This document shows, piece after piece, positions 82-14,072 of a stretch of DNA of 14,072 bases. The DNA lies in IMG/VR virus record IMGVR_UViG_2645727905_000010, positions 1-14,072 of that record; one strand, written 5' to 3'. How positions within the stretch are numbered: position 1 is the first letter of the stretch; the number at the start of each line of letters is the position of its first letter. The notes under the pieces were generated by a model. The model was not told the origin of the DNA and did not search any database. It saw only the letters and a program-made list of their open reading frames with translations. The position numbers were made by a program, and so were the translations under genes. The DNA is from a virus (Duplodnaviria; Heunggongvirae; Uroviricota; Caudoviricetes).

Positions 82-375
82 TTAACGTCGTAACCGCTCC
101 GGCTTCTTCCAGTGGTAAGTAATTTTTTCTTTCTCCTGGTACATCTCCACGCGGCGACGATATGACAACAACTCCAGAACTCTGGTGCGTATATTGCGTA
201 TATCCACGCCGTTAAGCTCGATACCGTCACGGCGCATCACCTCAGCCACCACACGCGCGTAATTTTCGGCTATCACGCTGTCCGGCTGCGTGGCCTCCTG
301 TTTGCCTGCTTCCTGGCTGATTCCGGTAACGCGACGGATTATTTTTAGTAGTTCGGTTTCGCTCATTCTCGTCAT
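82..375 (-). CDS. Hypothetical 97-aa protein, translationally coupled to the large terminase (ATGA overlap at 372-375)
   Basis: ORF with ATG at 375 overlapping the terL stop at 372-374. Basic C-terminus. No family recognised by eye. Confidence 0.55.
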   Translation of the reverse strand: MTRMSETELLKIIRRVTGISQEAGKQEATQPDSVIAENYARVVAEVMRRDGIELNGVDIRNIRTRVLELLSYRRRVEMYQEKEKITYHWKKPERLRR

Positions 376-3102: not shown

Positions 3103-3404
3103 CAGTACACCCCCACATCACGATAAACCGACCAGAGCGCAGAAATAGCCATAGGCAGTTCAGACTGCTCCACTGGTGAAACTGCTTCCCTGTTCTCGTA
3201 CAGGAAAGCGATGTACATCAGGCAACCAACACGCATTGCCGGGGTAAATTCCAGCCCGTCTTCAAAACGTTTCCCGATATGCTTCTGGCAGGCTTCCAGC
3301 GCCGCATCGGTATACATTTTCAGAAGTTCGCCTTCACCGGATAAATCATCATCAAGTCGAAGATGTGCCCTGACTTCATCAGGTGTAATTCTGGCTTCAC
3401 TCAT
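3102..3404 (-). CDS. Head-tail connector / adaptor protein (gp6-like)
   Basis: Translation from MSEARITPDEVRAHLRLDDD...EACQKHIGKRFE matches the characteristic N-terminus of gp6-like head-tail connector proteins. ATG at 3404 with GGGAG upstream. Overlaps the portal 3-prime end by 8 nt. Confidence 0.7.
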   Translation of the reverse strand: MSEARITPDEVRAHLRLDDDLSGEGELLKMYTDAALEACQKHIGKRFEDGLEFTPAMRVGCLMYIAFLYENREAVSPVEQSELPMAISALWSVYRDVGVY

Positions 3405-5222: not shown

Positions 5223-6368
5223 TTACTTGCCAGCCTGAATTTCCAGAATCTTGATGGCGTTCGAATCCACCACACCACCGCCCAGATATTTCTGGGTATA
5301 GATGTTAATGAATCCAGGCTCGCTGAAATCCGGACGGGTACGCGTACCGGTTTTATGGTCAACGATGAAATAACCGCGCTTAAAGTCACCGACTGCAATC
5401 ACACCGTCCGGCATAAATTCCAGATATTCAACCGGAAGCCCCAGCAGAGAATCAGGATCACCAGCCTGTAAACGATCGCGCCAGATGTAATCACCAGTGG
5501 CATTTTTCAGTTTTTGTGCGGAGGCGGCTGTATTTGAGTTCATCACCCATACAGCTTTTTTGCGGTACTTATTGCGCAGCGTAAATTTCAGGTCAATCAG
5601 CATATCGGCGCTGAGACTGCCAGTCACTTTTTTCGTCTGGAGCGTACCGAAAGGACGGGTTTTGTCATTATCCGTAGTGCGCGGGAAAGTCAGGAAACCT
5701 TTGGCTTTTTTCTCGCCATCACCGGAAACCAGATCCGTTTCTTCGGTATCAACGAAAGTGTCGCCAATTTCAGAAGATAACCAGCCCATAATATCGACTT
5801 CGGAAAAATCGATAATTTCCTGAGTGGTTTTCGGGTAAGCGTAGATCGGATACAGGCGGATACTGACTTCATTCAGTTTTGGGGTTGCCGTCTGGTTACG
5901 TGCCGCACCTTCTTCGCCGTGTCCCACGACCGCGCCCCCGGCAGAAACCAGTTGCTTAAATTCATTACTGTGAATGGTTTTAACAGTACAGATTTTACGC
6001 ATCACCGACTCATCAGAAAGCTGACGCATAATTTCTCTGTTCAGTTCCGGGATAACCGTATAACCACCATCAGCCGGAACACTGCCGGACAGGTTGCGGG
6101 TTTCCCCGGTCAGAATGTAAGAGCGTAGCTCATTTTTGGTGATTTTATCTTCGACGGGAACACCAGGCTGGTTACGTTCTTCATCAGCCACAGACTCGAG
6201 GCGGGAAATTTCTGTGTCGAGGGAATCGGCTTTTGCACGCAGTTCATCAAACTGTTTGCCTTCGTCATCGTTCAGGCTGCGGTTTTCACTGTCGGCTTTT
6301 TCCAGCAGGGATCGCATCTGGTTTTTCAGGACGGTTTTTTGCTGGCGGAGTTCGATTAATTTCTTCAT
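5223..6368 (-). CDS. Major capsid protein (HK97 fold) with N-terminal scaffold-like coiled-coil domain
   Basis: 381-aa translation with charged, heptad-like N-terminal region of about 100 aa and a C-terminal region typical of HK97-family capsid proteins. ATG at 6368. Confidence 0.9.
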   Translation of the reverse strand: MKKLIELRQQKTVLKNQMRSLLEKADSENRSLNDDEGKQFDELRAKADSLDTEISRLESVADEERNQPGVPVEDKITKNELRSYILTGETRNLSGSVPADGGYTVIPELNREIMRQLSDESVMRKICTVKTIHSNEFKQLVSAGGAVVGHGEEGAARNQTATPKLNEVSIRLYPIYAYPKTTQEIIDFSEVDIMGWLSSEIGDTFVDTEETDLVSGDGEKKAKGFLTFPRTTDNDKTRPFGTLQTKKVTGSLSADMLIDLKFTLRNKYRKKAVWVMNSNTAASAQKLKNATGDYIWRDRLQAGDPDSLLGLPVEYLEFMPDGVIAVGDFKRGYFIVDHKTGTRTRPDFSEPGFINIYTQKYLGGGVVDSNAIKILEIQAGK

Positions 6369-6438
6369 GAAGGTTTTCTCGCATTGGTTAAGATTCAGGA
6401 CGTGAAACCAACACGGGGGGAGCGCCGCCCGACACTCT

Positions 6439-6513
6439 CGGCATCTCGCAGATCAACCCGGCATCGCGCAGGGGGTCAGGCGGCATTGTGGCGGCTCACG
6501 TCTGAGTGCCACA
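6439..6513. promoter_or_regulatory. Candidate regulatory sites upstream of the capsid operon: direct repeats CGGCATC(N)CGCAG at 6439 and 6459, partial third at 6481, plus dyad TGTGGC-N15-GCCACA (6487-6513)
   Basis: Seen directly in sequence. Located 70-145 bp upstream of the capsid ATG (6368) on the transcribed side. Confidence 0.3.
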
Positions 6514-6562
6514 CGCCAACATATACATAAAAATCAGTATGTAAACATCAACCAGAATCACC

Positions 6563-6590
6563 GAACAACCTGGAACAACCACGAACAAAT
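6563..6590. repeat. Three 10-bp-phased copies of GAACAAC(C) (starts 6563, 6573, 6583); reverse complement GTTGTTC matches the repeat unit of the int-alpA array
   Basis: ccGAACAACC tgGAACAACC acGAACAAat read directly. Lies between the replication-operon terminator and the capsid gene. Confidence 0.6.
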
Positions 6591-6611
6591 AATTTACAAA
6601 ACCTGAAAAAA

Positions 6612-6632
6612 GGCCCGGAAAAAATCCGGGCC
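6612..6632 (-). terminator. Strong intrinsic terminator ending the replication/ssb/FinO operon (bidirectional hairpin)
   Basis: GGCCCGG-aaaaaat-CCGGGCC perfect 7-bp stem flanked by A-run on plus (T-run for minus-strand RNA) and T-rich tract on the other side. Follows the stop of ORF 6642..6890 within 10 nt. Confidence 0.75.
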
Positions 6633-6641
6633 TTTATCGCT

Positions 6642-6890
6642 TTATTGTTTCACTGGCTCCCGCATTCTGCGTCTTATTTTCCACAAATATTCGATCATCG
6701 CTTCCACCTGCTCACGGTTGGTTGCGAAAATTTCCCCGGTCAGTGAGCTACGCAGAAAATCATGATGATCCACAAAAAATAACGCATCGGAAGAAAGCAA
6801 CCGACGATATTTTTTTGCTGTCGTGGTTTCCAGATCATCAAAACCATGAAGCTTTTTATGTTGCTGAACTTCTTCAAATGTCACTGGCAT
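6642..6890 (-). CDS. Hypothetical 82-aa protein
   Basis: ORF with ATG at 6890 overlapping the FinO-like gene stop by 10 nt (operon context). No family recognised. Confidence 0.5.
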   Translation of the reverse strand: MPVTFEEVQQHKKLHGFDDLETTTAKKYRRLLSSDALFFVDHHDFLRSSLTGEIFATNREQVEAMIEYLWKIRRRMREPVKQ

Positions 6891-7411
6891 GTATCCCCCT
6901 TTGCTGCCCGGCGCTGGCGCTTGTGCTTCTCATTCAGCACCATCAGCCGTGTTTCTGCCTCCTGCTGTTCCTGTGGTGTCACTTCCCCACATGGCTGGCC
7001 TTTCAGATCGTAACGTGCGCCACCAGCTATCAGGGCGCGGTAATAGCGCGGAGACTGCGCATAGGATGCCAGCGTCGCACGTAATACCCCCGGCCCGAAT
7101 GCCAGCCCCCTGACGGCGATATCCTGCATCAGGTCGTCGAATATCCCCACCTTAAGCGGCTTCGGTGCTTTATGGCTGAATAAGTCAGGCCACATCTCAG
7201 TGAGGCGGTTAACGCGTCGGCGGTTTTTGCGCTGCCTTTTGGTCATATGCTGCCACGGTGTCGCCCCTGTGGGCTTCTGCTGTGCGTTCTGATTGCCGGG
7301 TATCACTTTATGCGCCGATGTGGTTTTATCCTGCTCTTGCGCCGCCTGCGTCGTTTTCTGCGGCGTGCCGTAAATGCCTTTCGGCTTCCGGTTAATGGTC
7401 AGCGTTGTCAT
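6881..7411 (-). CDS. ProQ/FinO-domain RNA-binding protein
   Basis: Core region WPDLFSHKAPKPLKVGIFDDLMQDIAVRGLAFGPGVLRATLASYAQSPRYYRALIAGGARYDLKGQPCGEVTPQEQQEAE resembles the ProQ/FinO fold signature (CF..PLKIGI.DL...S...LR.AL..Y..S.RY......G..R.DL.G...G.V). Basic Lys/Arg tail. Confidence 0.8.
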   Translation of the reverse strand: MTTLTINRKPKGIYGTPQKTTQAAQEQDKTTSAHKVIPGNQNAQQKPTGATPWQHMTKRQRKNRRRVNRLTEMWPDLFSHKAPKPLKVGIFDDLMQDIAVRGLAFGPGVLRATLASYAQSPRYYRALIAGGARYDLKGQPCGEVTPQEQQEAETRLMVLNEKHKRQRRAAKGDTCQ

Positions 7412-7447
7412 GCCTTCCCCTGTAATTACTCTGTTCGCTGTTGTGAA

Positions 7448-7873
7448 TTAAAACGGTATGTTATCCCCGTACGGGTCATCGTGCTGGCTTGTCTGTTGTT
7501 TTGCCCTGTTCAGTGCGTCAGTGGCCTGGCCCTGTTGACCTTTTTTGCCGCCCGGTCGCGCCGTTCGCGCACTGATTACGCTGTCTGCAATAACCTGCCA
7601 GCCCTGCCGCGTTTCCCCGTTCTGGCCTGTCCACTGGCTCACCTGCATGTTACCCGCCACGCTCACCAGTTCGCCTTTGTGGTGTTTTGCCAGTGCGTCG
7701 GCCTGTCTGCCAAACGCCAGGACAGATAACCACATCGTCGCCGTTCCGTCATCTGCCTGGCTGCACGGCAGGGGAACCGCCATACTCGCCATCGCCATTT
7801 GTGTCCCTTTGCTGGTGGTCTTTAACTGCGGGTCAGCCACCAGCCGCCCGTAAGCCGCTATCTGTGCTGTCAT
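7448..7873 (-). CDS. ssb: Single-stranded DNA-binding protein
   Basis: 141-aa translation with OB-fold-like core aligning by eye to E. coli SSB (IAAYGRLVADPQL / WLSVLAFGRQADALAKH / QGWQVIADSV), Gly/Gln-rich linker and C-terminal acidic tip ...DDPYGDNIPF (SSB tip motif D-I-P-F). Confidence 0.85.
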   Translation of the reverse strand: MTAQIAAYGRLVADPQLKTTSKGTQMAMASMAVPLPCSQADDGTATMWLSVLAFGRQADALAKHHKGELVSVAGNMQVSQWTGQNGETRQGWQVIADSVISARTARPGGKKGQQGQATDALNRAKQQTSQHDDPYGDNIPF

Positions 7874-7936
7874 GCTGTCTGTTCTCCGGTTTTAACGTTG
7901 ATTGTTACGCTTGTTTACACCCTTACGGTGAAATTC

Positions 7937-8060
7937 TGCGGGTTATAATCGCACTTTTGCGGGTTATAACTGCCGTTTTGCGGGTTACGTGCGGGTTATT
8001 GATTTCCTTTTTATTCATACAGTTAATGCACTTACACACAGGATAACCCGCATAACCCGC
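7937..8060. repeat. Putative origin of replication: four direct iterons TGCGGGTTA(T/C) at 7937, 7958, 7979, 7990, an AT-rich spacer, then two inverted copies ATAACCCGC at 8043 and 8052
   Basis: Seen directly. Located immediately 3-prime of the replication gene (stop at 8084), the usual ori position in PICI/P4-type elements. Confidence 0.75.
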
Positions 8061-8083
8061 AACTTTTTACATCACACAGGGGG

Positions 8084-10204
8084 TTAATCTTCTGCCTCAG
8101 GCTGGAACATCAGCACGTAAAAAACATGCTGCTTCCCCCCAATTTTGCTGAGCGCCTTTTTCTTGTAACGGCGGTCGTTCCCCTTTTCCAGCATCCCCGC
8201 CGCATCAAGCGCTCTTGCAAAATGCGACGGGTTAAATCCCTGTGCGATCTCACCTTCAAACACATGCGGGAACGTGTAAAAACGGAACTCGTCATCTTCG
8301 TTTCTGATACTCCCCTTTCTGTATCCGGCAAGCTCTTTAATCGGTAAATCACGCTCGTCGGTGTTGGGCCACGGAAGGTATCTGCTGAATCCGAACGACG
8401 CTAAAAAAGCCTCTGCCTGTTCAACCATCTGTTTAAACTCCCTGTTACCCGTGCCGAATTCCTTCACCCAGGCATAAAAATTATGCTGTATGGCATCGCG
8501 GCATTCCTGCTCATCCCAGCCAGTAACATGACCGGAAAGCACAAGCGCGGCCTCCAGTATGGCAAAACGCTCACCCACGCGGTGGACCTGCTCGCCGTAG
8601 CTCTCCGGTATCAGGTTGCGCCACCGTTCACGGCATGCCCTTACCGTGTCCTTTGCTTCCTGCTGGTGGTTTGCCAGCCATTTAACCCATTCACGACCCG
8701 CCGCCCCGTGATTTTCTGTCCAGGCATCCTTTAACGCGTCTGCGTGTGCCTTTCCGGTGCTGTATTCGTGAAATTGTGTGGCTTTTTCCATTGGCACGTT
8801 AAGCAGGCGGACAAGCTGCCCCGCCTTGACTTTTATCCCTTCCGTTTTGAGGAATGTTTCAACGTCCATTTCTCCGGTACTGATTGCCACCGTGCGCCAG
8901 TGTTTGATCTCCCTGTTGCCGCCGTCCTTTGCCCCCTGTAATTTCCCGGAACCGTTAAACAGCGTATAGGCTGACGTGGACACCTCCCGCGCGTTTCCGG
9001 CCTGACCTATTTCATCCAGGGGTAACAGCCCGTCATTATGTGCTTCGGCCTCGTTGGCGATACCTAACGCCGTGCCGTACCAGGTCAGCCGTTGTGCGTC
9101 CGGCTCTCCCCATAAACTGGATGCGATGTTCTGTGTGGTGGTTTTCCCTGCCGATGACTGTTCGAAAAGATGTACCCCGAAGCCGTCAGCCCCCACCAGC
9201 CCGATTAATGGTGCGGATAACGATACCGCCACACCCAGCATCATGGACGGATTACCACCAGCCAGCCGCGCCACGGTATCGCGCCAACCCTCCGCCGTTC
9301 CTGCCACGGAATAGCCATTAACAGCAGCCGTTTTTCCGGTAAACAGGACTGGCTTTTCGCAATCACCAATGACCGAACCGTCCGGCATGATGTACGCGCC
9401 AAAATGCCAGCCCGTTGTTGTGCTTAACTGCCATTCCTCATGGCTTCCGCTTAACTGCATCCAGTCAGCCAGGATAGCCCTGTATTTGCCGTTAGTTGTT
9501 ACGTTCAGTCCGTGGTCTTTCAGCAGCCGCCAGCCGTCACGGTCGCCAATGCCACCGCACGGAACCGCCATTGTTATGACTTCATGGTTTGCTAATTTTT
9601 TCCAGCGCATCACGCGGTAATGCTCTTTACCGATTGTCCCCGTTCCCAGTAGTTCAAGCGGGGAACATAACCACGTCTCAGGCCGGATAATTTCGCCTGA
9701 CTGCTTATCCACTTTGGGCGTTACCCAGAAAACACCATCGGCGCGGCTTTCAACGCGTGGCTTTAATTCATCATCACCCTGGCTTTCTGTGATTTTTTTC
9801 TTTAAGGGCAACACCAGACTTTCCCCGCGCTCGTATTCGTCTTTCAGCCGGGCAAGCTGTGGTGTCCAGTCCTCCAGTAAATCGCCGTTCTCGTCACAAA
9901 AACAGGCTTCTTTAACACCAGCCACTGCCAGCAGGGTTTCAATCTGTAGCGCCAGTTTGTCATCCAGTTTTCCGGCACGTCTGACGATGGCGCGTGACCG
10001 ACCCTCATCCACAATACGCAGGTTTTCCAGATTACCCAGGTCACGCCGTCCGAGATAAACAGGTGGTATTTTGTCGCCGCGCTTTCTGGCTTCTCCGCCC
10101 TGCATGTAATGCTCTGCGTGGCTGTATGCGTCATCCCCCGCAAAAATCACTGCATCCTCGCCTTTATCTTTCGGTAACAGTTTTACGTTCGGTGCCAGTT
10201 TCAT
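8084..10204 (-). CDS. Replication initiator: primase/helicase-like protein with P-loop NTPase domain
   Basis: 706-aa ORF. Central P-loop-like motif FEQSSAGKTTTQ and size/architecture typical of satellite and genomic-island primase-helicase (pri-rep) proteins. ATG at 10204 overlaps the upstream gene stop (ATGA). Confidence 0.8.
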   Translation of the reverse strand: MKLAPNVKLLPKDKGEDAVIFAGDDAYSHAEHYMQGGEARKRGDKIPPVYLGRRDLGNLENLRIVDEGRSRAIVRRAGKLDDKLALQIETLLAVAGVKEACFCDENGDLLEDWTPQLARLKDEYERGESLVLPLKKKITESQGDDELKPRVESRADGVFWVTPKVDKQSGEIIRPETWLCSPLELLGTGTIGKEHYRVMRWKKLANHEVITMAVPCGGIGDRDGWRLLKDHGLNVTTNGKYRAILADWMQLSGSHEEWQLSTTTGWHFGAYIMPDGSVIGDCEKPVLFTGKTAAVNGYSVAGTAEGWRDTVARLAGGNPSMMLGVAVSLSAPLIGLVGADGFGVHLFEQSSAGKTTTQNIASSLWGEPDAQRLTWYGTALGIANEAEAHNDGLLPLDEIGQAGNAREVSTSAYTLFNGSGKLQGAKDGGNREIKHWRTVAISTGEMDVETFLKTEGIKVKAGQLVRLLNVPMEKATQFHEYSTGKAHADALKDAWTENHGAAGREWVKWLANHQQEAKDTVRACRERWRNLIPESYGEQVHRVGERFAILEAALVLSGHVTGWDEQECRDAIQHNFYAWVKEFGTGNREFKQMVEQAEAFLASFGFSRYLPWPNTDERDLPIKELAGYRKGSIRNEDDEFRFYTFPHVFEGEIAQGFNPSHFARALDAAGMLEKGNDRRYKKKALSKIGGKQHVFYVLMFQPEAED

Positions 10205-10515
10205 TTTGCCTTTCCCCGTTCACGAATAATTTCACGTACTGCCTTAATGCGTTCCATTCCTGTAACGCGCATGATTCTGTCAATGTCGCTTAAGTTCGCT
10301 GGTGGTGCTTTGCTTACCAGGGTGAACTCCCTTTCAAAGCGCATATGCGACGACACGCAGGGATGCGCATAACCTTCGCGGATATAGGTCACGCGAAAAT
10401 CATCGACGGTTTTAATCGTTATCGTGCTGCCGTATTTATCCCGGAAAATATCGCCGGGGCGGATTTCAGGCCGAGCGGGGCCGCTGGCAGTAAAGCCAGA
10501 ATTTTTCTTTTTCAT
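10201..10515 (-). CDS. Hypothetical 104-aa protein
   Basis: ORF with ATG at 10515 and GGAG upstream. Stop overlaps the replication gene start, consistent with translational coupling. No family recognised. Confidence 0.55.
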   Translation of the reverse strand: MKKKNSGFTASGPARPEIRPGDIFRDKYGSTITIKTVDDFRVTYIREGYAHPCVSSHMRFEREFTLVSKAPPANLSDIDRIMRVTGMERIKAVREIIRERGKAK

Positions 10516-10520
10516 GTTTT

Positions 10521-10739
10521 TTACTCCAGAGGCAGCTTTTTAGCGGCGAGCTCAATATCAGATGTCAGAGAAACCTGTGTATTTGCCAGGTCTAACAACA
10601 AAGAAATAAGAATTTCTTCTCTGCTATCGGATTTATCGGTGCTAAGGCTGTTCATCCACATATTGACGACTTCCCTGATTTTTTTCGCAGAGTGCAGGGC
10701 TTCAAATGCCAGGTCTTCAATATCATGTTTATTTCGCAT
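10521..10739 (-). CDS. Hypothetical 72-aa protein, predicted helical
   Basis: Start chosen at ATG 10739 (MRNKHDIEDL...) with G-rich SD-like tract upstream. The longer form to 10805 would overlap the upstream gene by 77 nt. Confidence 0.45.
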   Translation of the reverse strand: MRNKHDIEDLAFEALHSAKKIREVVNMWMNSLSTDKSDSREEILISLLLDLANTQVSLTSDIELAAKKLPLE

Positions 10740-10941
10740 AATCGCCCCCGCGTAGCTGGTCTGCACTAACACCCGATTTAGTGAGCATTTCAGAAAATCC
10801 CGCAAGAGTGCTGATAAATTCGTTTTCCATTAAACGGCACTGACATTTAACCCGGCCTTTTTCCAGATACACCAGTACGCGCCCCGTATAATCTGACGGC
10901 ACATTCAGCACTACAGGTAAGTGCGATTCATGATTATGCAT
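10729..10941 (-). CDS. Hypothetical 70-aa protein, paralog of the adjacent upstream gene
   Basis: Shares pattern TG..LV....KGRV.C...L with ORF 10934..11143. ATG at 10941 overlaps that ORF's stop by 8 nt. Confidence 0.55.
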   Translation of the reverse strand: MHNHESHLPVVLNVPSDYTGRVLVYLEKGRVKCQCRLMENEFISTLAGFSEMLTKSGVSADQLRGGDYAK

Positions 10942-11143
10942 GTCTCACCCCCTGAATATTCGCATTAATCATTCCGGCACGTTCTGCGAGTTCCTGTAAT
11001 GATTCCCTTGTTGCGACAATGGCTTCATCTGGCAGGTGGTAATTACACACCACGCGACCTTTATCCACATTGACCAGTAGCTGCCCGGTAAATTTCTCAC
11101 GAAACTGAACGCGGTTAAGGTCGGTAAGTGACAGGTTAATCAT
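10934..11143 (-). CDS. Hypothetical 69-aa protein, paralog of 10729..10941
   Basis: ATG at 11143 preceded by AGGGGGA. Conserved block FTGQLLVNVDKGRVVCNYHL aligns to YTGRVLVYLEKGRVKCQCRL of the neighbour. Confidence 0.55.
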   Translation of the reverse strand: MINLSLTDLNRVQFREKFTGQLLVNVDKGRVVCNYHLPDEAIVATRESLQELAERAGMINANIQGVRHA

Positions 11144-11339
11144 GGTGTTCCCCCTGGCGAATACGGGCAGCGAATACCATCACGCAGCCATCAGGAGATT
11201 GCTGACGCGCTTCCTGTTCGCTGGTGGCCTCAATGGTAATCACGCGCGGTTGTGCCGTGCTCAGGGCGATAAAACGCCAGATGTATTTATTCAGGTTGTA
11301 CGAGTCCCGCCCTTGCGGGTGTCTGGTATAATTTCTCAT
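11136..11339 (-). CDS. Hypothetical 67-aa protein, first gene of the leftward operon
   Basis: ATG at 11339 with GAGG 5 nt upstream. This is the plausible 3-prime part of a 370-aa track ORF whose remainder has non-protein-like composition and crosses the plus-strand genes. Confidence 0.45.
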   Translation of the reverse strand: MRNYTRHPQGRDSYNLNKYIWRFIALSTAQPRVITIEATSEQEARQQSPDGCVMVFAARIRQGEHHD

Positions 11340-11415
11340 AGCTGCCTCGATACGCTTTCTATCGTTGGTGGTTAGACGCCCTGCATGTGTGCCACCACTG
11401 CGGGGCGTTGTTGTT

Positions 11416-11511
11416 TGGTGCATCGCACCATTCGGTTTTAACCTATCAATAAGTGAATCGCACTTCAAGCCTTTCTCTGAAATTTTTTTTGTGTATACTG
11501 AATCGCACCAA
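11416..11511. promoter_or_regulatory. Divergent promoter/operator region: perfect palindrome TGGTGC-ATC-GCACCA (11416-11430) plus two further ATCGCAC-containing sites (11456-11467, 11500-11512), the last abutting a TATACT -10-like element (11494-11499)
   Basis: Seen directly. Lies between the divergently oriented 67-aa gene (start 11339) and the RHH gene (start 11530). Confidence 0.5.
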
Positions 11512-11529
11512 CTTAGAGAGGATTCAGTA

Positions 11530-11709
11530 ATGGCAACAGGTTCAACAAATAATAAGTCGCAACAGTTAAATGCCAGATTCCCGCATGATGTTGTTGCAGA
11601 CTTAGAAAAAAATTTAGATGAAGGTGAAAGCAAGGCGCAATTTATAGTTACTGCCGTTAAAGGTGAGATCAAACGCCGCCAGCGCCGCAAGGCCAAAGAG
11701 CAGGAGTAA
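11530..11709 (+). CDS. Ribbon-helix-helix (Arc/CopG-like) DNA-binding protein, 59 aa
   Basis: ATG at 11530 with AGAGGA 7 nt upstream. Translation has RHH-like layout: short N-terminal strand (LNARFPHDVV) followed by two helices (ADLEKNL...; ESKAQFIVTAVKGEIKRRQ) and a basic tail. Confidence 0.6.
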   Translation: MATGSTNNKSQQLNARFPHDVVADLEKNLDEGESKAQFIVTAVKGEIKRRQRRKAKEQE

Positions 11710-11766
11710 CCATCACCAGCGCCGTGGTGTAAGGTATTACGGCGCATTGCTATGCAGGACAACACA

Positions 11767-11940
11767 ATGACCGATAAAGAATTGACCAAAACATTATCAC
11801 CGACACGGAAAAGACGGCGCAGAAAGATAGAGCATGAATCAGAAAGATTCGCGCCATGTGCTTTTGCCCTTGAGCAATTCCTTAAAGAGTACAGGGAAAA
11901 GCGCTCATTGCAGGTATGGCAACGAACTGAACCAGACTGA
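11767..11940 (+). CDS. Hypothetical 57-aa protein with Arg/Lys-rich N-terminal segment
   Basis: ATG at 11767 with AGGA 7 nt upstream; ORF track alternative ATG at 11752 lacks an SD. Followed by an intrinsic terminator. Confidence 0.4.
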   Translation: MTDKELTKTLSPTRKRRRRKIEHESERFAPCAFALEQFLKEYREKRSLQVWQRTEPD

Positions 11941-12005
11941 TTGCATTGCCCACCAGCCGCAAATGTGGCATTGTTGGTGATGCTTTTGTTTTCCCTTGTT
12001 CCCAC

Positions 12006-12042
12006 TGGCGACCCTTTTGCGGTCGCCTTTGTTTTGCTTGTT
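12006..12042 (+). terminator. Intrinsic terminator for the plus-strand two-gene cassette
   Basis: tGGCGACC-cttttgc-GGTCGCCa stem-loop (7-8 bp stem) followed by TTTGTTTTGCTTGTT. Confidence 0.7.
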
Positions 12043-12300
12043 ATCCGGCAATAGTGGCGCTTCACCACACGGTTGATATAATTCCCCTGCACTGATCCAT
12101 TTTTTTCGCAGCAGGTTAATTGTTCAGAAAGACGGTTCCTTATCGGGGCCGCTTTTTTTATGCCTGAAAATACCCGATAACATGGCTTTTTAGTTTCACC
12201 AGGACGAACGAAGCCCCGCCCCTGTTCGGGCGTATATCCAGTATTCATGGTTAGATCTCTGTGTTAGTGGATGGGTGGCGGCGGTGCGCCGCCAGCCTGA

Positions 12301-12504
12301 TTAGTGAACTGCCTCGCGGCTGTCCTTCCATGCCAGAACTTCGGATAAAGACCAGCCAACGGAACGACCGCCGAGTTTACGCCGTGATGGGAATTGTCCA
12401 GTCTTCTCCAGGCGATACCGACATGAGCGGCTCAGGCCTGTAAGTTGCTGACATTCTTTTTCACGTATAAAGCGATCAGCGCTTAACACTATTGCCTCCG
12501 TCAT
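12301..12504 (-). CDS. alpA: AlpA-family transcriptional regulator (phage/island excision-activation regulator)
   Basis: 67-aa translation ...REKECQQLTGLSRSCRYRLEKTGQFPSRRKLGGRSVGWSLSEVLAWK matches the AlpA pattern (...TGLSRSTIYRL...G.FP....LG.RSVGW...E...W). Confidence 0.85.
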   Translation of the reverse strand: MTEAIVLSADRFIREKECQQLTGLSRSCRYRLEKTGQFPSRRKLGGRSVGWSLSEVLAWKDSREAVH

Positions 12505-12695
12505 TTCTCAAAGAGTCATTTGGTGTCTTATTGTGTCGTATTGTTCCCGCTAGAGTGATGAATGGCAAATATTGGTGACGGTCGTTTTACAGATATGGGG
12601 TAATTAGAATAAAAATACTTTTAATTCATTGTGATGTAGTAGCGTAAAATTTTGCTTTTACGCCTTTTTTACATATTTTTAAGAGTGATTCGCCA

Positions 12696-12711
12696 GTGTA
12701 TAAAAAAACAG
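12696..12711. promoter_or_regulatory. LexA-box-like element GTGTATAAAAAAACAG (one mismatch to CTGT-N8-ACAG) in the int-alpA intergenic region
   Basis: Seen directly. Differs at 2 positions from the E. coli umuDC-type box CTGTATATAAAAACAG as I recall it. The mismatch is in the normally conserved CTG. Confidence 0.3.
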
Positions 12712-12770
12712 TATACATATAAAAATCAAATGGTTATGAATGAGTTTGATTTTTAATCCGCTTGTCCCAT

Positions 12771-12820
12771 TTTGTTCCTTGTTGTTCGTCGTTGTGTCTC
12801 GTTGTTCCACGTTGTGTCCG
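12771..12820. repeat. Five 10-bp-phased repeats (T/C)GTTGT(T/G)(T/C)C between the integrase stop and alpA
   Basis: tttgttcctt gttgttcgtc gttgtgtctc gttgttccac gttgtgtccg read directly at starts 12771, 12781, 12791, 12801, 12811. Confidence 0.75.
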
Positions 12821-12842: not shown

Positions 12843-14072
12843 TTATATTTCTCTGGCTATTGGCAGTGTGGTTACGTTTTCGTGAGTACCCGCCAGTATC
12901 TCTAACCGCTCTGTCCACATGTCCAGCGCATTACGTTTCGCATCGAGATAACGGGAGTGGTTATAGACTCGCTGCATCCCTGGCATCTGGTGAGCGGTGA
13001 GTTGTTCGACAATATGCGGATCCACGCCTAAATCGTTCAGCATCGTGGTAAACGTGCGCCGTATATCGTGTAGTGACCAGTGCGGATGGTTTAATTTTTT
13101 GTGCGTGAATCTGCCGTATTGCGACACGCTGGCTTCCTGTTTCAGTTCCCCGAGTAATAGTCCTGTGTGTCGGTTCTGCTCCACCAGCCGTGTGACGAAC
13201 GGTAAAATGCTTTCCGGTATTGGCCTGAATATGGCGACCTTCGTTTTGCTGTGCTCCTTCGGTACTGTCCAGAGCATTTCCTTAAAATCCCACTCCCTGA
13301 TCTCCGACAGCCTCAGTTCTCCGGTTCGGCAACCAAACACAATCAGGAGGCGGATTAGTGCGCTGTAGTAGGGCGGGAATATTTTTTTATCCAGCGCCTG
13401 TAATAATTCGCCCAGTTCTTTGTTACTAAGCACGCGTTCGCTTATGCCTGGTTTTTTACCAACGTCCACCACGTTGAGATCATCCAGAGCGTTACTGACG
13501 ACATAGCGGCGTTTACGACAGAATTTAAGCGCCTGTTTGCACGCCTGCATCATGTGACCAGACGTTACGGGGGATTTTTTGCGTATCCGGTCAAAACAGG
13601 CCAGCCAGTGACGTAATTCGCATTTATCCAGTGGCATGTTACCGATGTGCTGTATGACGTGATTATTCAGGCGACTTTTCAGGCATACATAATCGACACG
13701 GTTTTCCTTTACGTGCGTTTCCAGCCAGTAACTGATCGCATCGCCAACCGTTACGGGTTTTAACGCTTCCTGCACAGTGTAGTTCAGTTCATGACGTGGG
13801 TTTTTCCCTTCTGCCAGCCATGCACGACACTTTGCGGCTTTTTCCCTGGCTGCTTTAAGGCTCAGATCGGGATAGTTTCCCAGCTTCAGGCGTTCCGGTG
13901 TGGTATCCCTTCCCGTTCCAGCCCTGTAGGTGAAGTACCAGGTCAATTTACCTGATGTTAAATATTTCACGCTCAGATTACCGCCATCGCTATAGAACGT
14001 ATTTTTCTCCGCTGGCTTACCATAAAGTTTTCTTAACAATGTATCGCTCAGTTTGTTAAGCGCTCTGCTCAC
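12843..14072 (-). CDS. int: Tyrosine integrase (P4/CP4-57-like), truncated by the window edge at its 5-prime end
   Basis: C-terminal catalytic region with HDIRRTF (H-x-x-R), LTAHQ and RVYNHSRY (Tyr nucleophile). N-terminal region ...YSDGGNLSVKYL...GKLTWYFTYR... typical of P4-family integrases. The ORF is open to the window end and the first translated codon is GTG, so the true start lies beyond 14072. Confidence 0.93.
   Translation of the reverse strand: MSRALNKLSDTLLRKLYGKPAEKNTFYSDGGNLSVKYLTSGKLTWYFTYRAGTGRDTTPERLKLGNYPDLSLKAAREKAAKCRAWLAEGKNPRHELNYTVQEALKPVTVGDAISYWLETHVKENRVDYVCLKSRLNNHVIQHIGNMPLDKCELRHWLACFDRIRKKSPVTSGHMMQACKQALKFCRKRRYVVSNALDDLNVVDVGKKPGISERVLSNKELGELLQALDKKIFPPYYSALIRLLIVFGCRTGELRLSEIREWDFKEMLWTVPKEHSKTKVAIFRPIPESILPFVTRLVEQNRHTGLLLGELKQEASVSQYGRFTHKKLNHPHWSLHDIRRTFTTMLNDLGVDPHIVEQLTAHQMPGMQRVYNHSRYLDAKRNALDMWTERLEILAGTHENVTTLPIAREI

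Follow-up and report, generated by a model that had tools for sequence, protein, structure and literature searches.

Helically phased TTGTTC-family arrays at alpA and at the packaging operon of a capsid-forming PICI are candidate AlpA binding sites

The window (the whole stretch of 14,072 nucleotides that was analyzed) is a capsid-forming PICI (cf-PICI) that carries phased direct repeats of one sequence family, TTGTTC/TTGTGTC, in three intergenic regions: array A between int and alpA, array C just upstream of the alpA ribosome-binding site, and array B upstream of the capsid gene. On balance, we consider it probable that these arrays are cooperative AlpA sites that couple excision, self-activation and packaging-operon expression.

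Every gene of the island lies on the minus strand. As expected of a cf-PICI, a complete HK97-type head and packaging module comes after int, alpA and pri-rep, the window is free of tail and lysis genes, and the gene order is syntenic with that of an EcCIEDL933-like island. Pfam matches in the window comprise Int, AlpA, DUF927, SSB, capsid, S78 protease, portal, connector, HNH, TerS and TerL; after the capsid gene, the packaging operon runs through the protease, portal, connector, HNH, TerS and TerL genes and extends to position 372. The island origin consists of six copies of the iteron GCGGGTTA, all within 7938-8060, and its position just downstream of pri agrees with the literature (PMC10111431). 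The genes that matter most here are the following.

12843-14072, minus strand: int, encoding a tyrosine integrase with an N-terminal Arm-DNA-bind_3 domain (Pfam)
12301-12489, minus strand: alpA (62 aa, GTG start preceded by GGAGG), encoding a winged-helix excisionase/regulator, the candidate array binder
5223-6368, minus strand: HK97-type major capsid gene, gene 1 of the packaging operon

In an unbiased scan for 10-bp periodicity, the four highest peaks of the 14 kb were four intergenic arrays (A, B, C and D). In this motif-free lag-10 autocorrelation, the top four 30-nt segments (D, 28-57; C, 12515-12544; B, 6559-6588; A, 12773-12802) scored 15-16 matches of 20, compared to a null maximum with a mean of 13 and a 95th percentile of 14, and with 50-nt windows only A (29 of 40) and D (28 of 40) stood out. 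The core of array D differs from that of A, B and C.

31-75: array D, five copies of GTGAC-N5

The sequence-only reading had proposed that the motif frequency be compared with chance. The exact heptamer count did not reach significance (5 observed versus 2.4 expected, with 21 of 200 shuffles reaching 5), whereas the phasing of the heptamers was significant: allowing at most one mismatch per copy, a run of at least three copies at exactly 10 bp was observed once and in none of 300 dinucleotide-preserving shuffles, and runs of at least two copies were observed twice, versus a shuffle mean of 0.07. Two or more direct repeats at helical (∼10 bp) phase, as seen here, are typical of the site arrays of an excisionase (recombination directionality factor, RDF).

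The two arrays upstream of alpA share one orientation, opposite to that of array B and of the arrays in the att arms.

12761-12818, plus strand: array A, six units at exact 10-bp spacing between the int stop codon and alpA
12521-12547, plus strand: array C, three units (TGGTGTC, TTGTGTC, ATTGTTC) oriented as in A
12540-12568, minus strand: predicted proximal alpA promoter (TTGCCA, 17-nt spacer, AACAAT)
12710-12729, minus strand: box TGATTTTTATATGTATACT, ∼30 bp downstream of array A, read from the sequence

The units of array A on the plus strand are CTTGTCC (12761), TTTGTTC (12771), GTTGTTC (12781), GTTGTGTC (12791), GTTGTTC (12801) and GTTGTGTC (12811), which read GACACAAC/GAACAAC in the direction of the genes; 24 bp separate the end of the array and the int stop codon (12843-12845). 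Five copies had been counted here previously, and their 10-bp phase proved exact, with one additional, degenerate copy that brings the number to six. Array C, a third member of the motif family beyond the two arrays already described, is positioned 32-58 bp ahead of the alpA GTG start, and its first unit is the −10 element of the predicted proximal alpA promoter, the hexamers of which are identical in the related island L003 and in EcCICFT073. Between A and C is an AT-rich stretch of ∼210 bp. The TGATTTTTATATGTATACT box, which is conserved in EcCICFT073 and resembles TGATTTTTATGTATATGTT inside the packaging promoter (6518-6536), may serve as a distal alpA promoter that depends on an activator and has TATACT as its −10. 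Array A is conserved in L003, L004, L094, L118, L121 and EcCICFT073, and array C in L003, L004 and EcCICFT073, with 4-5 units there.

About 195 bp separate array B from the capsid ATG (6368) downstream of it; the region has the following features.

6563-6589, minus strand: array B, TTTGTTC gtg GTTGTTC cag GTTGTTC in the gene direction
6518-6545, minus strand: predicted sigma-70 packaging promoter, P_cap (TTTACA, 16-nt spacer, TATGTT)
6590-6601, minus strand: AT-rich conserved box TTTTGTAAATTA, directly upstream of array B
6609-6635, no strand assigned: perfect 11-bp inverted repeat AAAGGCCCGGA / TCCGGGCCTTT with A and T runs on its flanks

On the plus strand, array B reads GAACAAC (6563), GAACAAC (6573) and GAACAAA (6583), confirming the three copies at 10-bp phase, opposite to A, that were first noticed. 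P_cap is the sole promoter-like site within 6380-6700, and its −35 and −10 elements are conserved over 71 variants; relative to this predicted promoter, array B occupies about −52 to −78, with unit centres at ∼−75, −65 and −55 from the inferred start. The anchor-to-leader spacing was constant (77 or 78 nt) in 71 of 71 variants, the promoter being a predicted one. Among 43 distinct 77-nt capsid-promoter variants, the only sequence conserved upstream of the −35 was three 5-bp blocks at 10-bp phase (TGTTC, N5, TTC, N6, GTT); the spacers varied freely and the distance to the −35 was constant. Because the TTTTGTAAATTA box served as the search anchor for the variant set, its conservation there is by construction, and it is independently present in L003, L004, L005 and L012. 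Array B forms an island of 89-97% identity between two diverged flanks: the window and EcCIEDL933-like islands share it despite differences in promoter and leader and an identity of only 40% in the small gene next to it. The inverted repeat at 6609-6635 is terminator-like and sits between the early genes and P_cap; it was not among the sites listed by the terminator scan.

The same motif family recurs in the att arms, that is, at the island ends, which lie outside the window. In L003, L004 and EcCICFT073, a module of three TTGTTC-type units, 16 bp and two tandem copies of GGTGTAGTTAAT is found 22 bp before the int ATG, and the right ends of EcCICFT073 and of two window-like islands, L111 and L120, carry the module again, in the same orientation. 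The sequence-only reading had suggested scanning related islands for the motif, and such conservation was found for A, B and C as well as in these arms. In these islands the units stand beside probable integrase arm-type sites, and the arrays A, C and B of the window are internal. The 12-mer doublet varies with the integrase type (GGTGTAGTTAAT, TGTGTGGTCAGT, CTGTATAAACAT, CGGTGTATCACT or TGTGTATTGCA), whereas the adjoining TTGTTC-like units are retained across all five doublet/integrase types; L127, L061 and L064, for example, which have the TGTGTGGTCAGT doublet, keep GTTGTTC units. Tandem 12-mer doublets on either side of the core are annotated as attP arm repeats in the P4 record. We conclude that the tandem 12-mers are probably integrase arm sites and the TTGTTC triplets probably excisionase sites.

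AlpA has the properties of a small winged-helix RDF (∼60-90 aa, helix-turn-helix plus beta wing, PF05930). It matched PF05930 at 3.4e-18, phrog_2790 (excisionase and transcriptional regulator) and PDB 8c3t (E 5e-7), and its AF2 model (pLDDT 88, H-H-E-E-H topology) matched the GIsul2 excisionase with TM-scores of 0.80/0.86, with RdfS, TorI and BldC also matched. A recognition-helix motif, (S/C)R(S/T)xR(Y/W), is common to all AlpA clades seen with TGTTC arrays. In published work, AlpA is the master switch of Gram-negative PICIs and cf-PICIs: an AlpA model resembles TorI and Xis, and alpA by itself induces excision (PMC10803314); the EcCICFT073 protein, to which the AlpA of the window is ∼95% identical, switches on a PalpA reporter and brings about excision and replication (PMC6092414); and AlpA is needed for excision in the cases of the EcCICFT073, PICMI and EcCIMP1 proteins (PMC10803314, PMC6092414, PMC11773190). 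The EcCICFT073 Pint is reported to be unresponsive to AlpA (PMC6092414), although a triplet is present upstream of EcCICFT073 int. Where AlpA binds and how the cf-PICI capsid/terminase operon is controlled were not stated in the literature searched.

We infer that AlpA binds these arrays and that array B activates P_cap. The heptamers would be the units of cooperative, head-to-tail AlpA binding sites, with AlpA acting both as an RDF and as a transcriptional activator. The att-arm triplets, 16 bp from the tandem 12-mer arm sites, would fit the role in excision; the long array A and the short array C upstream of alpA would fit positive, and perhaps also limiting, autoregulation; and the triplet at ∼−52 to −78 would activate the packaging-operon promoter, perhaps as an upstream (class I-like) activator site. 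When a helper phage raises alpA transcription, AlpA would then trigger excision, amplify its own synthesis and turn up the capsid and terminase genes.

The earlier proposal that one protein serves both A and B gains from the finding that both are conserved, promoter-proximal elements of one family that look like protein sites, and loses from two distributions: EcCICFT073 has arrays A and C and lacks B, and a window-type array B also accompanies at least three other AlpA clades (L017/L079/L116, L052/L127 and L097), which are 48-61% identical. Array A was absent from the alpA upstream regions of those other-clade islands. Array B does not, therefore, co-vary with AlpA, so that the idea of one protein for both arrays rests on a recognition helix conserved across clades, and the AlpA model fits only if all clades read TGTTC. 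Also against the AlpA model are the orientation of A and C, opposite to that of B and of the arm arrays, the reported lack of a response of the EcCICFT073 Pint, and a class of islands with T(G/T)TAC units at array B and TTGTTC units in the att arm. In addition, cf-PICI capsids reportedly form without a helper (bioRxiv 10.1101/2025.02.11.637232) and P_cap carries a good −35 (TTTACA), so P_cap may need no activator. A single regulator is nonetheless plausible, and AlpA is the best candidate for it.

The distribution of array B raises the possibility, which we consider unlikely, that B is read by a factor other than that of A and C, either a host direct-repeat binder (e.g., of the OmpR/PhoB type) or an island protein, in which case the shared TGTTC core would reflect a common mode of reading direct repeats rather than a shared regulator. 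Besides the independence of array B type from AlpA clade and the occurrence of A and C without B in EcCICFT073, a second class of islands fits this explanation: it has T(G/T)TAC units at array B, yet TTGTTC units in the att arm, and on the other strand the former read GTAAT-N5-GTAAA-N5-GTAC, which we take to resemble a CpxR box (GTAAA-N5-GTAAA). Some arm units also read CTGTTCAT, presumably like the tor box CTGTTCATAT. However, these resemblances to host sites (CpxR, tor box) are tentative, and the TTGTTC units adjoin integrase arm sites in both att arms, the classic position of an excisionase. As for an island protein, the one candidate examined, the 82-aa product encoded upstream of B (phrog_1957), has no homologue there in many TGTTC-class islands, with none detected at all in the TGTTC-TGTTTTC-TGTTTG class, and its identity is only 40% between islands that have the same arrays. 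It is rather unlikely, too, that the arrays are targeted, solely or additionally, by the excisionase of the helper phage, with an early lambdoid Xis binding A, switching on alpA and so acting as the inducer of these islands, by analogy with the activation of P4 by P2 Cox. The lambda X1 region holds GTTGTGT, a unit of array A, and the strongest 10-bp-periodic segment of P4 is CCACTTAAAG three times, between vis and sid, which we take to match the cox-box consensus and the P2 Cox activation site of P_LL. Helper phages do raise alpA transcription via a phage factor (PMC6092414), not named in the literature searched, and cross-talk between PICIs and helper excisionases has been reported (PMC11773190). 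Against this, the likeness to lambda consists of one 7-mer, islands with the same arrays differ in helper range (lambda/phi80 for EcCICFT073 versus HK106/HK446 for EcCIEDL933), and PalpA activation and island induction need AlpA alone and no phage (PMC10803314, PMC6092414), so the arrays can be read without any phage factor. The helper-Xis and AlpA ideas could be combined, a similarly doubtful scheme, in a shared landing pad where helper Xis would fire alpA via A and AlpA would then take over the same sites, excise the island and turn on the capsid operon; if so, phage Xis would be the long-sought inducer of Gram-negative PICIs.

Two further explanations invoke proteins of the island that bind repeats at its ends or at its origin. 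The sequence-only reading had itself named integrase arm-type sites as an alternative for A, and an integrase that binds the arrays through its Arm-DNA-bind_3 domain and also acts as a regulator would account for the 24 bp between A and the int stop codon, for the TTGTTC units in both att arms and for triplets at 10-bp spacing, which resemble lambda P'1-P'3, three arm sites. We regard this as quite improbable and rejected it: the int-proximal island end (window position 14072) is 1.3 to 7.5 kb away from the three arrays (>1.25 kb for A, ∼7.5 kb for B), too distant for arms, since arm sites lie within ∼150 bp of the crossover core, and it is the doublet, laid out as in the attP arm repeats of the P4 record, and not the TTGTTC unit that changes with integrase type, as L127, L061 and L064 illustrate. 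Replication iterons bound by Pri-Rep, on the model of P4 ori and crr (4.5 kb apart), are hardly credible. Two arrays do flank the replication module, the stretch between A and C is AT-rich, and the P4 type 1 iteron TGTTCACC shares TGTTC, but the origin of the island uses the different repeat GCGGGTTA, and L004 retains all three arrays although a RepA-type helicase stands in place of DUF927 Pri-Rep, the two having in common only the N-terminal 120 aa (39% identical). Both observations contradict the iteron explanation.

AlpA as the reader of the arrays is hence the explanation carried forward here, with a cis-regulatory map of TTGTTC-type triplets beside the arm doublets at both ends, a 6-7-unit array plus a promoter-overlapping triplet at alpA, and a triplet at ∼−55/−65/−75 of the packaging promoter. 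If AlpA reads all of these sites, one 62-residue protein would time excision, self-amplification and capsid production, and such sites could be used to predict AlpA regulons in thousands of catalogued satellites. The map also separates probable integrase arm sites from probable excisionase sites, a point on which an earlier paper had left the doubled motif open.

Judged from sequence comparison, the proposed AlpA sites would extend a known kind of control. In TorI (attL of prophage KplE1/CPS-53, E. coli), a small winged-helix excisionase binds three sites at 10-bp phase, as here; these are 2 nt apart, have cores GTTCG/GTTCG/GATCG (versus TGTTCG/TGTTCC here) and abut the −35 of PintS (PMC2951348). 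Further likenesses are that the sites adjoin integrase arm sites and immediately precede a −35, and that cooperative binding to them alters transcription (PMC2951348, PMC3509656). In contrast to the activation proposed here, TorI represses the int promoter, and its sites are known only in attL, whereas the present arrays also occur deep inside the island, at alpA and the capsid operon; TorI matched PF05930 weakly (E 0.12). The X1-X1.5-X2 sites of lambda Xis are likewise phased direct repeats adjoining an integrase arm site, next to which the region reads ATGTTGTGTTTT, and the GTTGTGT of X1 is identical to array A units. Xis forms a head-to-tail protein filament on DNA; its sites are in one arm only and serve recombination, and we know of no activation of structural genes by lambda Xis.

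P4 has an integrase of the same family, and its core is flanked in the same layout by tandem 12-mer arm doublets with T/G-rich phased units adjoining them. Its Vis protein, an AlpA homologue annotated as an excisionase and transcriptional regulator, works on P_LL and P_sid and is required for excision, so that one small protein serves both excision and the control of morphogenetic genes. P4 differs in having no capsid genes, in late promoters that depend on Delta/Ogr, and in the sequences of its arm 12-mers (GGGGGCA core) and phased decamers at 9176-9205. BldC of Streptomyces, a small MerR/Xis-like regulator with the same fold as AlpA, lines up head to tail on direct repeats, in varying numbers, and controls promoters; it is a developmental regulator of the chromosome rather than the excisionase of a mobile element, and its repeat sequence is different. 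The classical Gram-negative PICI EcCICFT073, with an AlpA 95% identical to that of the window, lacks the packaging operon together with array B, and it also has the attL module, array A (7 units), array C and the right-end module.

The window is a capsid-forming phage-inducible chromosomal island (cf-PICI). It shares synteny with the EcCIEDL933-type island of E. coli O157 (bioRxiv 10.1101/2022.09.08.507074), and all of its long genes lie on the minus strand. Its genes and four arrays of 10-bp-phased units are as follows.

14072-12843, minus strand: int, tyrosine integrase with an Arm-DNA-bind_3 domain (Pfam)
12761-12818, plus strand: array A, six units (CTTGTCC, TTTGTTC, GTTGTTC, GTTGTGTC, GTTGTTC, GTTGTGTC) at exact 10-bp spacing
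12521-12547, plus strand: array C, units TGGTGTC, TTGTGTC and ATTGTTC, just upstream of the alpA ribosome-binding site; newly found here
GTG at 12489, minus strand: alpA, 62 aa (Pfam, PF05930)
minus strand: DUF4222 gene (Pfam)
10204-8084, minus strand: DUF927 primase-helicase (Pfam)
minus strand: SSB gene (Pfam)
minus strand: ProQ/FinO protein gene (Pfam)
minus strand, just upstream of array B: gene for an 82-aa protein
6563-6589, minus strand: array B, three units
6368-5223, minus strand: HK97-type capsid gene (Pfam)
minus strand: the rest of a complete HK97-type head/packaging module, with S78 protease, portal, connector, HNH, TerS and TerL (Pfam)
82-375, minus strand: last gene
26-79 (core 31-75): array D, GTGAC-N5 repeated five times in exact 10-bp phase; newly found here

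The full length of a 370-aa ORF (11136-12248) probably does not represent a gene. A family match, to phrog_6196 (named transcriptional repressor), covers just the final ~90 residues (about 11136-11405). Relatives have gene calls at the syntenic position that carry the name Icd-like cell division inhibitor, and the 850 bp separating this matching part from alpA differ from island to island and carry no functional assignment. An Rfam search of the window returned no match.

The sequence-only reading had described five phased copies of GTTGTTC after int and three, oppositely oriented, upstream of the capsid operon. Array A lies where it was described, with six copies rather than five, and array B is confirmed in place, number and orientation. 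The bare heptamer is not notably frequent (5 copies in the window vs 2.4 expected), but its 10-bp phasing exceeds chance: three-copy phased runs appeared in 0 of 300 dinucleotide-preserving shuffles. When the 14 kb were ranked by lag-10 autocorrelation, a motif-free measure, the top four segments were the intergenic arrays A, B, C and D, each above the 95th percentile of the null maximum. Because of these phasing statistics and the conservation described below, a chance origin of the arrays is excluded. Array D, whose core is unlike TTGTTC, begins directly past the stop codon of the last gene and in gene direction reads GTGACATACC, GTGACGGAGA, GTGACAACCA, GTGACACACA, GTGACAAAAA (4 phased pairs vs 0.01 expected). 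It is present in three related loci (L094, L105, L111) and absent from L120, despite a 100%-identical last gene.

Upstream of the capsid operon, the order in gene direction is a perfect, terminator-like 11-bp inverted repeat (6609-6635), an AT-rich box TTTTGTAAATTA and then array B, which lies 17 bp upstream of the predicted promoter TTTACA-16-TATGTT (6545-6518), the sole promoter-like site of the region. If transcription starts near 6511, the array B units are centred near -55, -65 and -75. The ~145-nt leader (6366-6512, minus strand) is structured (fold z-score -2.15), has no Rfam match and opens with the hairpin GTGGCACTCAGACGTGAGCCGCCAC, in place of which EcCIEDL933-like islands have a different leader.

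Conservation of this region was examined by a megablast search with 6300-7000 as query, in which 507 of 5,426 E. coli genomes gave a match. In many of these the match was limited to 6563-6619 (array B and the hairpin start), at 89-97% identity and with no annotated feature. L003 (EcCIEDL933-like) and L004 have retained arrays A, C and B, although identity of the small gene preceding B is down to 40% and the downstream promoter and leader differ. A pattern scan of viral contigs, in which the leader hairpin core GGCACTCAGACGTGAGCC was part of the search pattern, found 120 further cf-PICI loci, whose capsid promoters come in 71 distinct versions (43 of 77 nt and 28 of 78 nt); the same core occurs in L005 and L012, both found by other routes. 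A capsid-protein search of genome contigs added one useful locus, which was incomplete. Among the 43 77-nt versions, high information content was confined to positions 1-5 (TGTTC), 13-15 (TTC), 22-24 (GTT), the -35 and the -10, which indicates three blocks of 5 bp in 10-bp phase, whose spacers are free and whose distance to the promoter is constant. This pattern reads as a clean phylogenetic footprint of three phased sites. Because array B keeps a fixed distance upstream of the predicted promoter, it seems unlikely to be a small-terminase or cos site.

In the second, 78-nt class, T(G/T)TAC units replace those of the TGTTC type. In this class (L005, L016, L027, L043, L090 and others) a CCCCTG...CGGGGG inverted repeat comes after the units, and the -35 is poor. 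Its other strand reads GTAAT-N5-GTAAA-N5-GTAC, which resembles the CpxR box.

Between int and alpA, a predicted promoter, TTGCCA-17-AACAAT (12568-12540), is overlapped at its -10 by array C; transcription starts in this region are predicted near 12703 and 12533. About 30 bp downstream of array A is a box, TGATTTTTATATGTATACT (12710-12729), that resembles the capsid-promoter core and may possibly be an activator-dependent distal promoter. It belongs to a second element shared by the two regions in the same orientation, TGATTTTTATATGTATACT past array A and TGATTTTTATGTATATGTT (6518-6536) past array B, the latter covering the spacer and -10 at the capsid operon. The AT-rich stretch between arrays A and C also holds a terminator-like hairpin with a T run (12642-12663, plus strand), antisense to the island genes.

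In another AlpA clade (L026, L041, L050, L100, L127), a terminator-like hairpin, GCTCTCGAAC...CGAACGAGAGC, which includes GAAC-N6-GAAC, and a T run immediately precede the alpA ATG, and in the clade with a 94-aa AlpA a hairpin pairs CCTCCAC with the Shine-Dalgarno sequence GTGGAGG. These hairpins suggest post-initiation control of alpA in those two clades. Four islands (L016, L090, L117, L130) carry very long tandem arrays after int (GCATTCAACA repeated as many as about ten times, AATGACACGT x3, CAGCACCTAA x3), followed by five GTTCAT-type units at 10-bp phase. In CP4-57 of E. coli K-12 (L136), 10-bp periodicity within the intA-alpA region is strongest in the segment AACCAAAGTG AACCAATGAG AGGCAACAAG (3215-3244), which directly precedes the alpA ATG and has the position and orientation of array C.

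Related islands bear on what the arrays are. In L003 and L004, the int start codon is preceded at a distance of 22 bp by the module CTTGTTCC ag CTTGTTTC ac GTTGTAGCC, 16 bp, GGTGTAGTTAAT GGTGTAGTTAAT. The window-like loci L111 and L120, which extend past the window, end with a co-oriented copy of the int-side module (CTTGTGTC ta TTTGTTCC ac GTTGTTTC, 16 bp, doublet, host-DNA junction) ~560 bp beyond window position 1. EcCICFT073, a classical Gram-negative PICI, has both modules. The 12-mer doublet varies across integrase types (GGTGTAGTTAAT, TGTGTGGTCAGT, CTGTATAAACAT, CGGTGTATCACT, TGTGTATTGCA), whereas the adjoining phased units remain TTGTTC-like, and tandem 12-mer doublets flanking the attP core are annotated "attP arm sequence repeat" in the GenBank entry for the satellite phage P4. 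We therefore read the doublets as putative integrase arm-type sites and the TTGTTC units as candidate sites of a partner protein conserved across the family; a doubled motif was seen earlier in helper-embedded PICIs, its binder being left open (PMC10111431). The alternative offered by the sequence-only reading, that the arrays themselves are integrase arm sites, is disfavoured by their position and by the lack of co-variation with integrase type, and we rejected it as very improbable. A reading as replication iterons is less probable still and is contradicted by the island's own probable origin (7938-8060). This origin has a different iteron, GCGGGTTA, all six window copies of which (four plus strand, two minus strand) sit on the two sides of an AT-rich stretch that lies past the pri-rep stop codon and before ssb. 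Moreover, L004 keeps arrays A, C and B though a RepA-type helicase replaces the DUF927 initiator. In L111 a second GCGGGTTA cluster lies between the last gene and attR. In L012 (11040-11310; also L052 and L097) the P4 type 1 iteron, TGTTCACC, is present many times at the origin, downstream of a different primase.

Excisionases classically act at sites beside arm sites. TorI, the KplE1 excisionase, binds cooperatively to three sites 2 nt apart (cores GTTCG, GTTCG, GATCG) that abut the -35 of the int promoter (PMC2951348, PMC3509656), and the lambda Xis region beside an arm site reads ATGTTGTGTTTT. In the island, AlpA (PF05930) is the protein with an excisionase fold; it gave a confident H-H-wing-H model with TM 0.80/0.86 to the GIsul2 excisionase and also matched RdfS, TorI and BldC. 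Published work reports that alpA by itself induces excision (PMC10803314, PMC6092414), that EcCICFT073 AlpA activates its own promoter (PMC6092414) and that EcCIMP1 AlpA behaves likewise (PMC11773190). EcCICFT073 AlpA is 95% identical to that of the window, its island carries arrays A and C, and a recognition-helix motif, (S/C)R(S/T)xR(Y/W), is common to all AlpA clades accompanying TGTTC arrays. Several observations count against the mechanism proposed below. Array B of the window type is also found alongside three or more other AlpA clades (48-61% identical), in which array A is missing from the alpA region, and array B type does not clearly co-vary with AlpA subclade (counter-examples L097 and L102) in a way that would single out the binder. 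Islands of the T(G/T)TAC class carry TTGTTC in the arm and not at the promoter, the -35 of the predicted capsid promoter is good, EcCICFT073 Pint is reported to be unresponsive to AlpA (PMC6092414), and some helper-independent formation of cf-PICI capsids is reported (bioRxiv 10.1101/2025.02.11.637232). Among the rival readings, it is unlikely that a separate, possibly host, factor reads array B, and slightly less likely again that a helper-phage Xis reads the arrays.

The 82-aa protein was rejected as the array B binder; no known domain was recognised in it, and its identity is a mere 40% between islands whose arrays are identical. Many TGTTC-class islands lack a homologue at this place, and in one class no homologue was detected anywhere. 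The Pseudomonas aeruginosa AlpA antiterminator, which is larger, Q-like and has a single site, GGGACG, between -35 and -10, was rejected as a model. Literature searches on PDB 8C3T and on a PICI inducer yielded nothing relevant.

With AlpA as the proposed binder, a helper phage raises alpA transcription and AlpA would then polymerise head to tail on the phased units. At the att arms it would steer Int towards excision; at array A it would stimulate a weak distal promoter in positive feedback, and binding to array C may limit expression because the array overlaps the proximal -10. At array B, AlpA would bend the DNA or touch RNA polymerase from -55 to -75 and thus raise packaging-operon transcription.

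Our literature search found no mapping of phased excisionase sites in PICIs and no link of such sites to a cf-PICI packaging promoter. The outcome is a useful, directly testable regulatory map that holds no surprise for a specialist. Phased excisionase sites that double as promoter control are of a known kind (TorI, P4 Vis, P2 Cox, BldC), and P4 itself has T/G-rich phased units beside its own arm doublets, while the two GCGGGTTA clusters of L111 recall P4 ori and crr.
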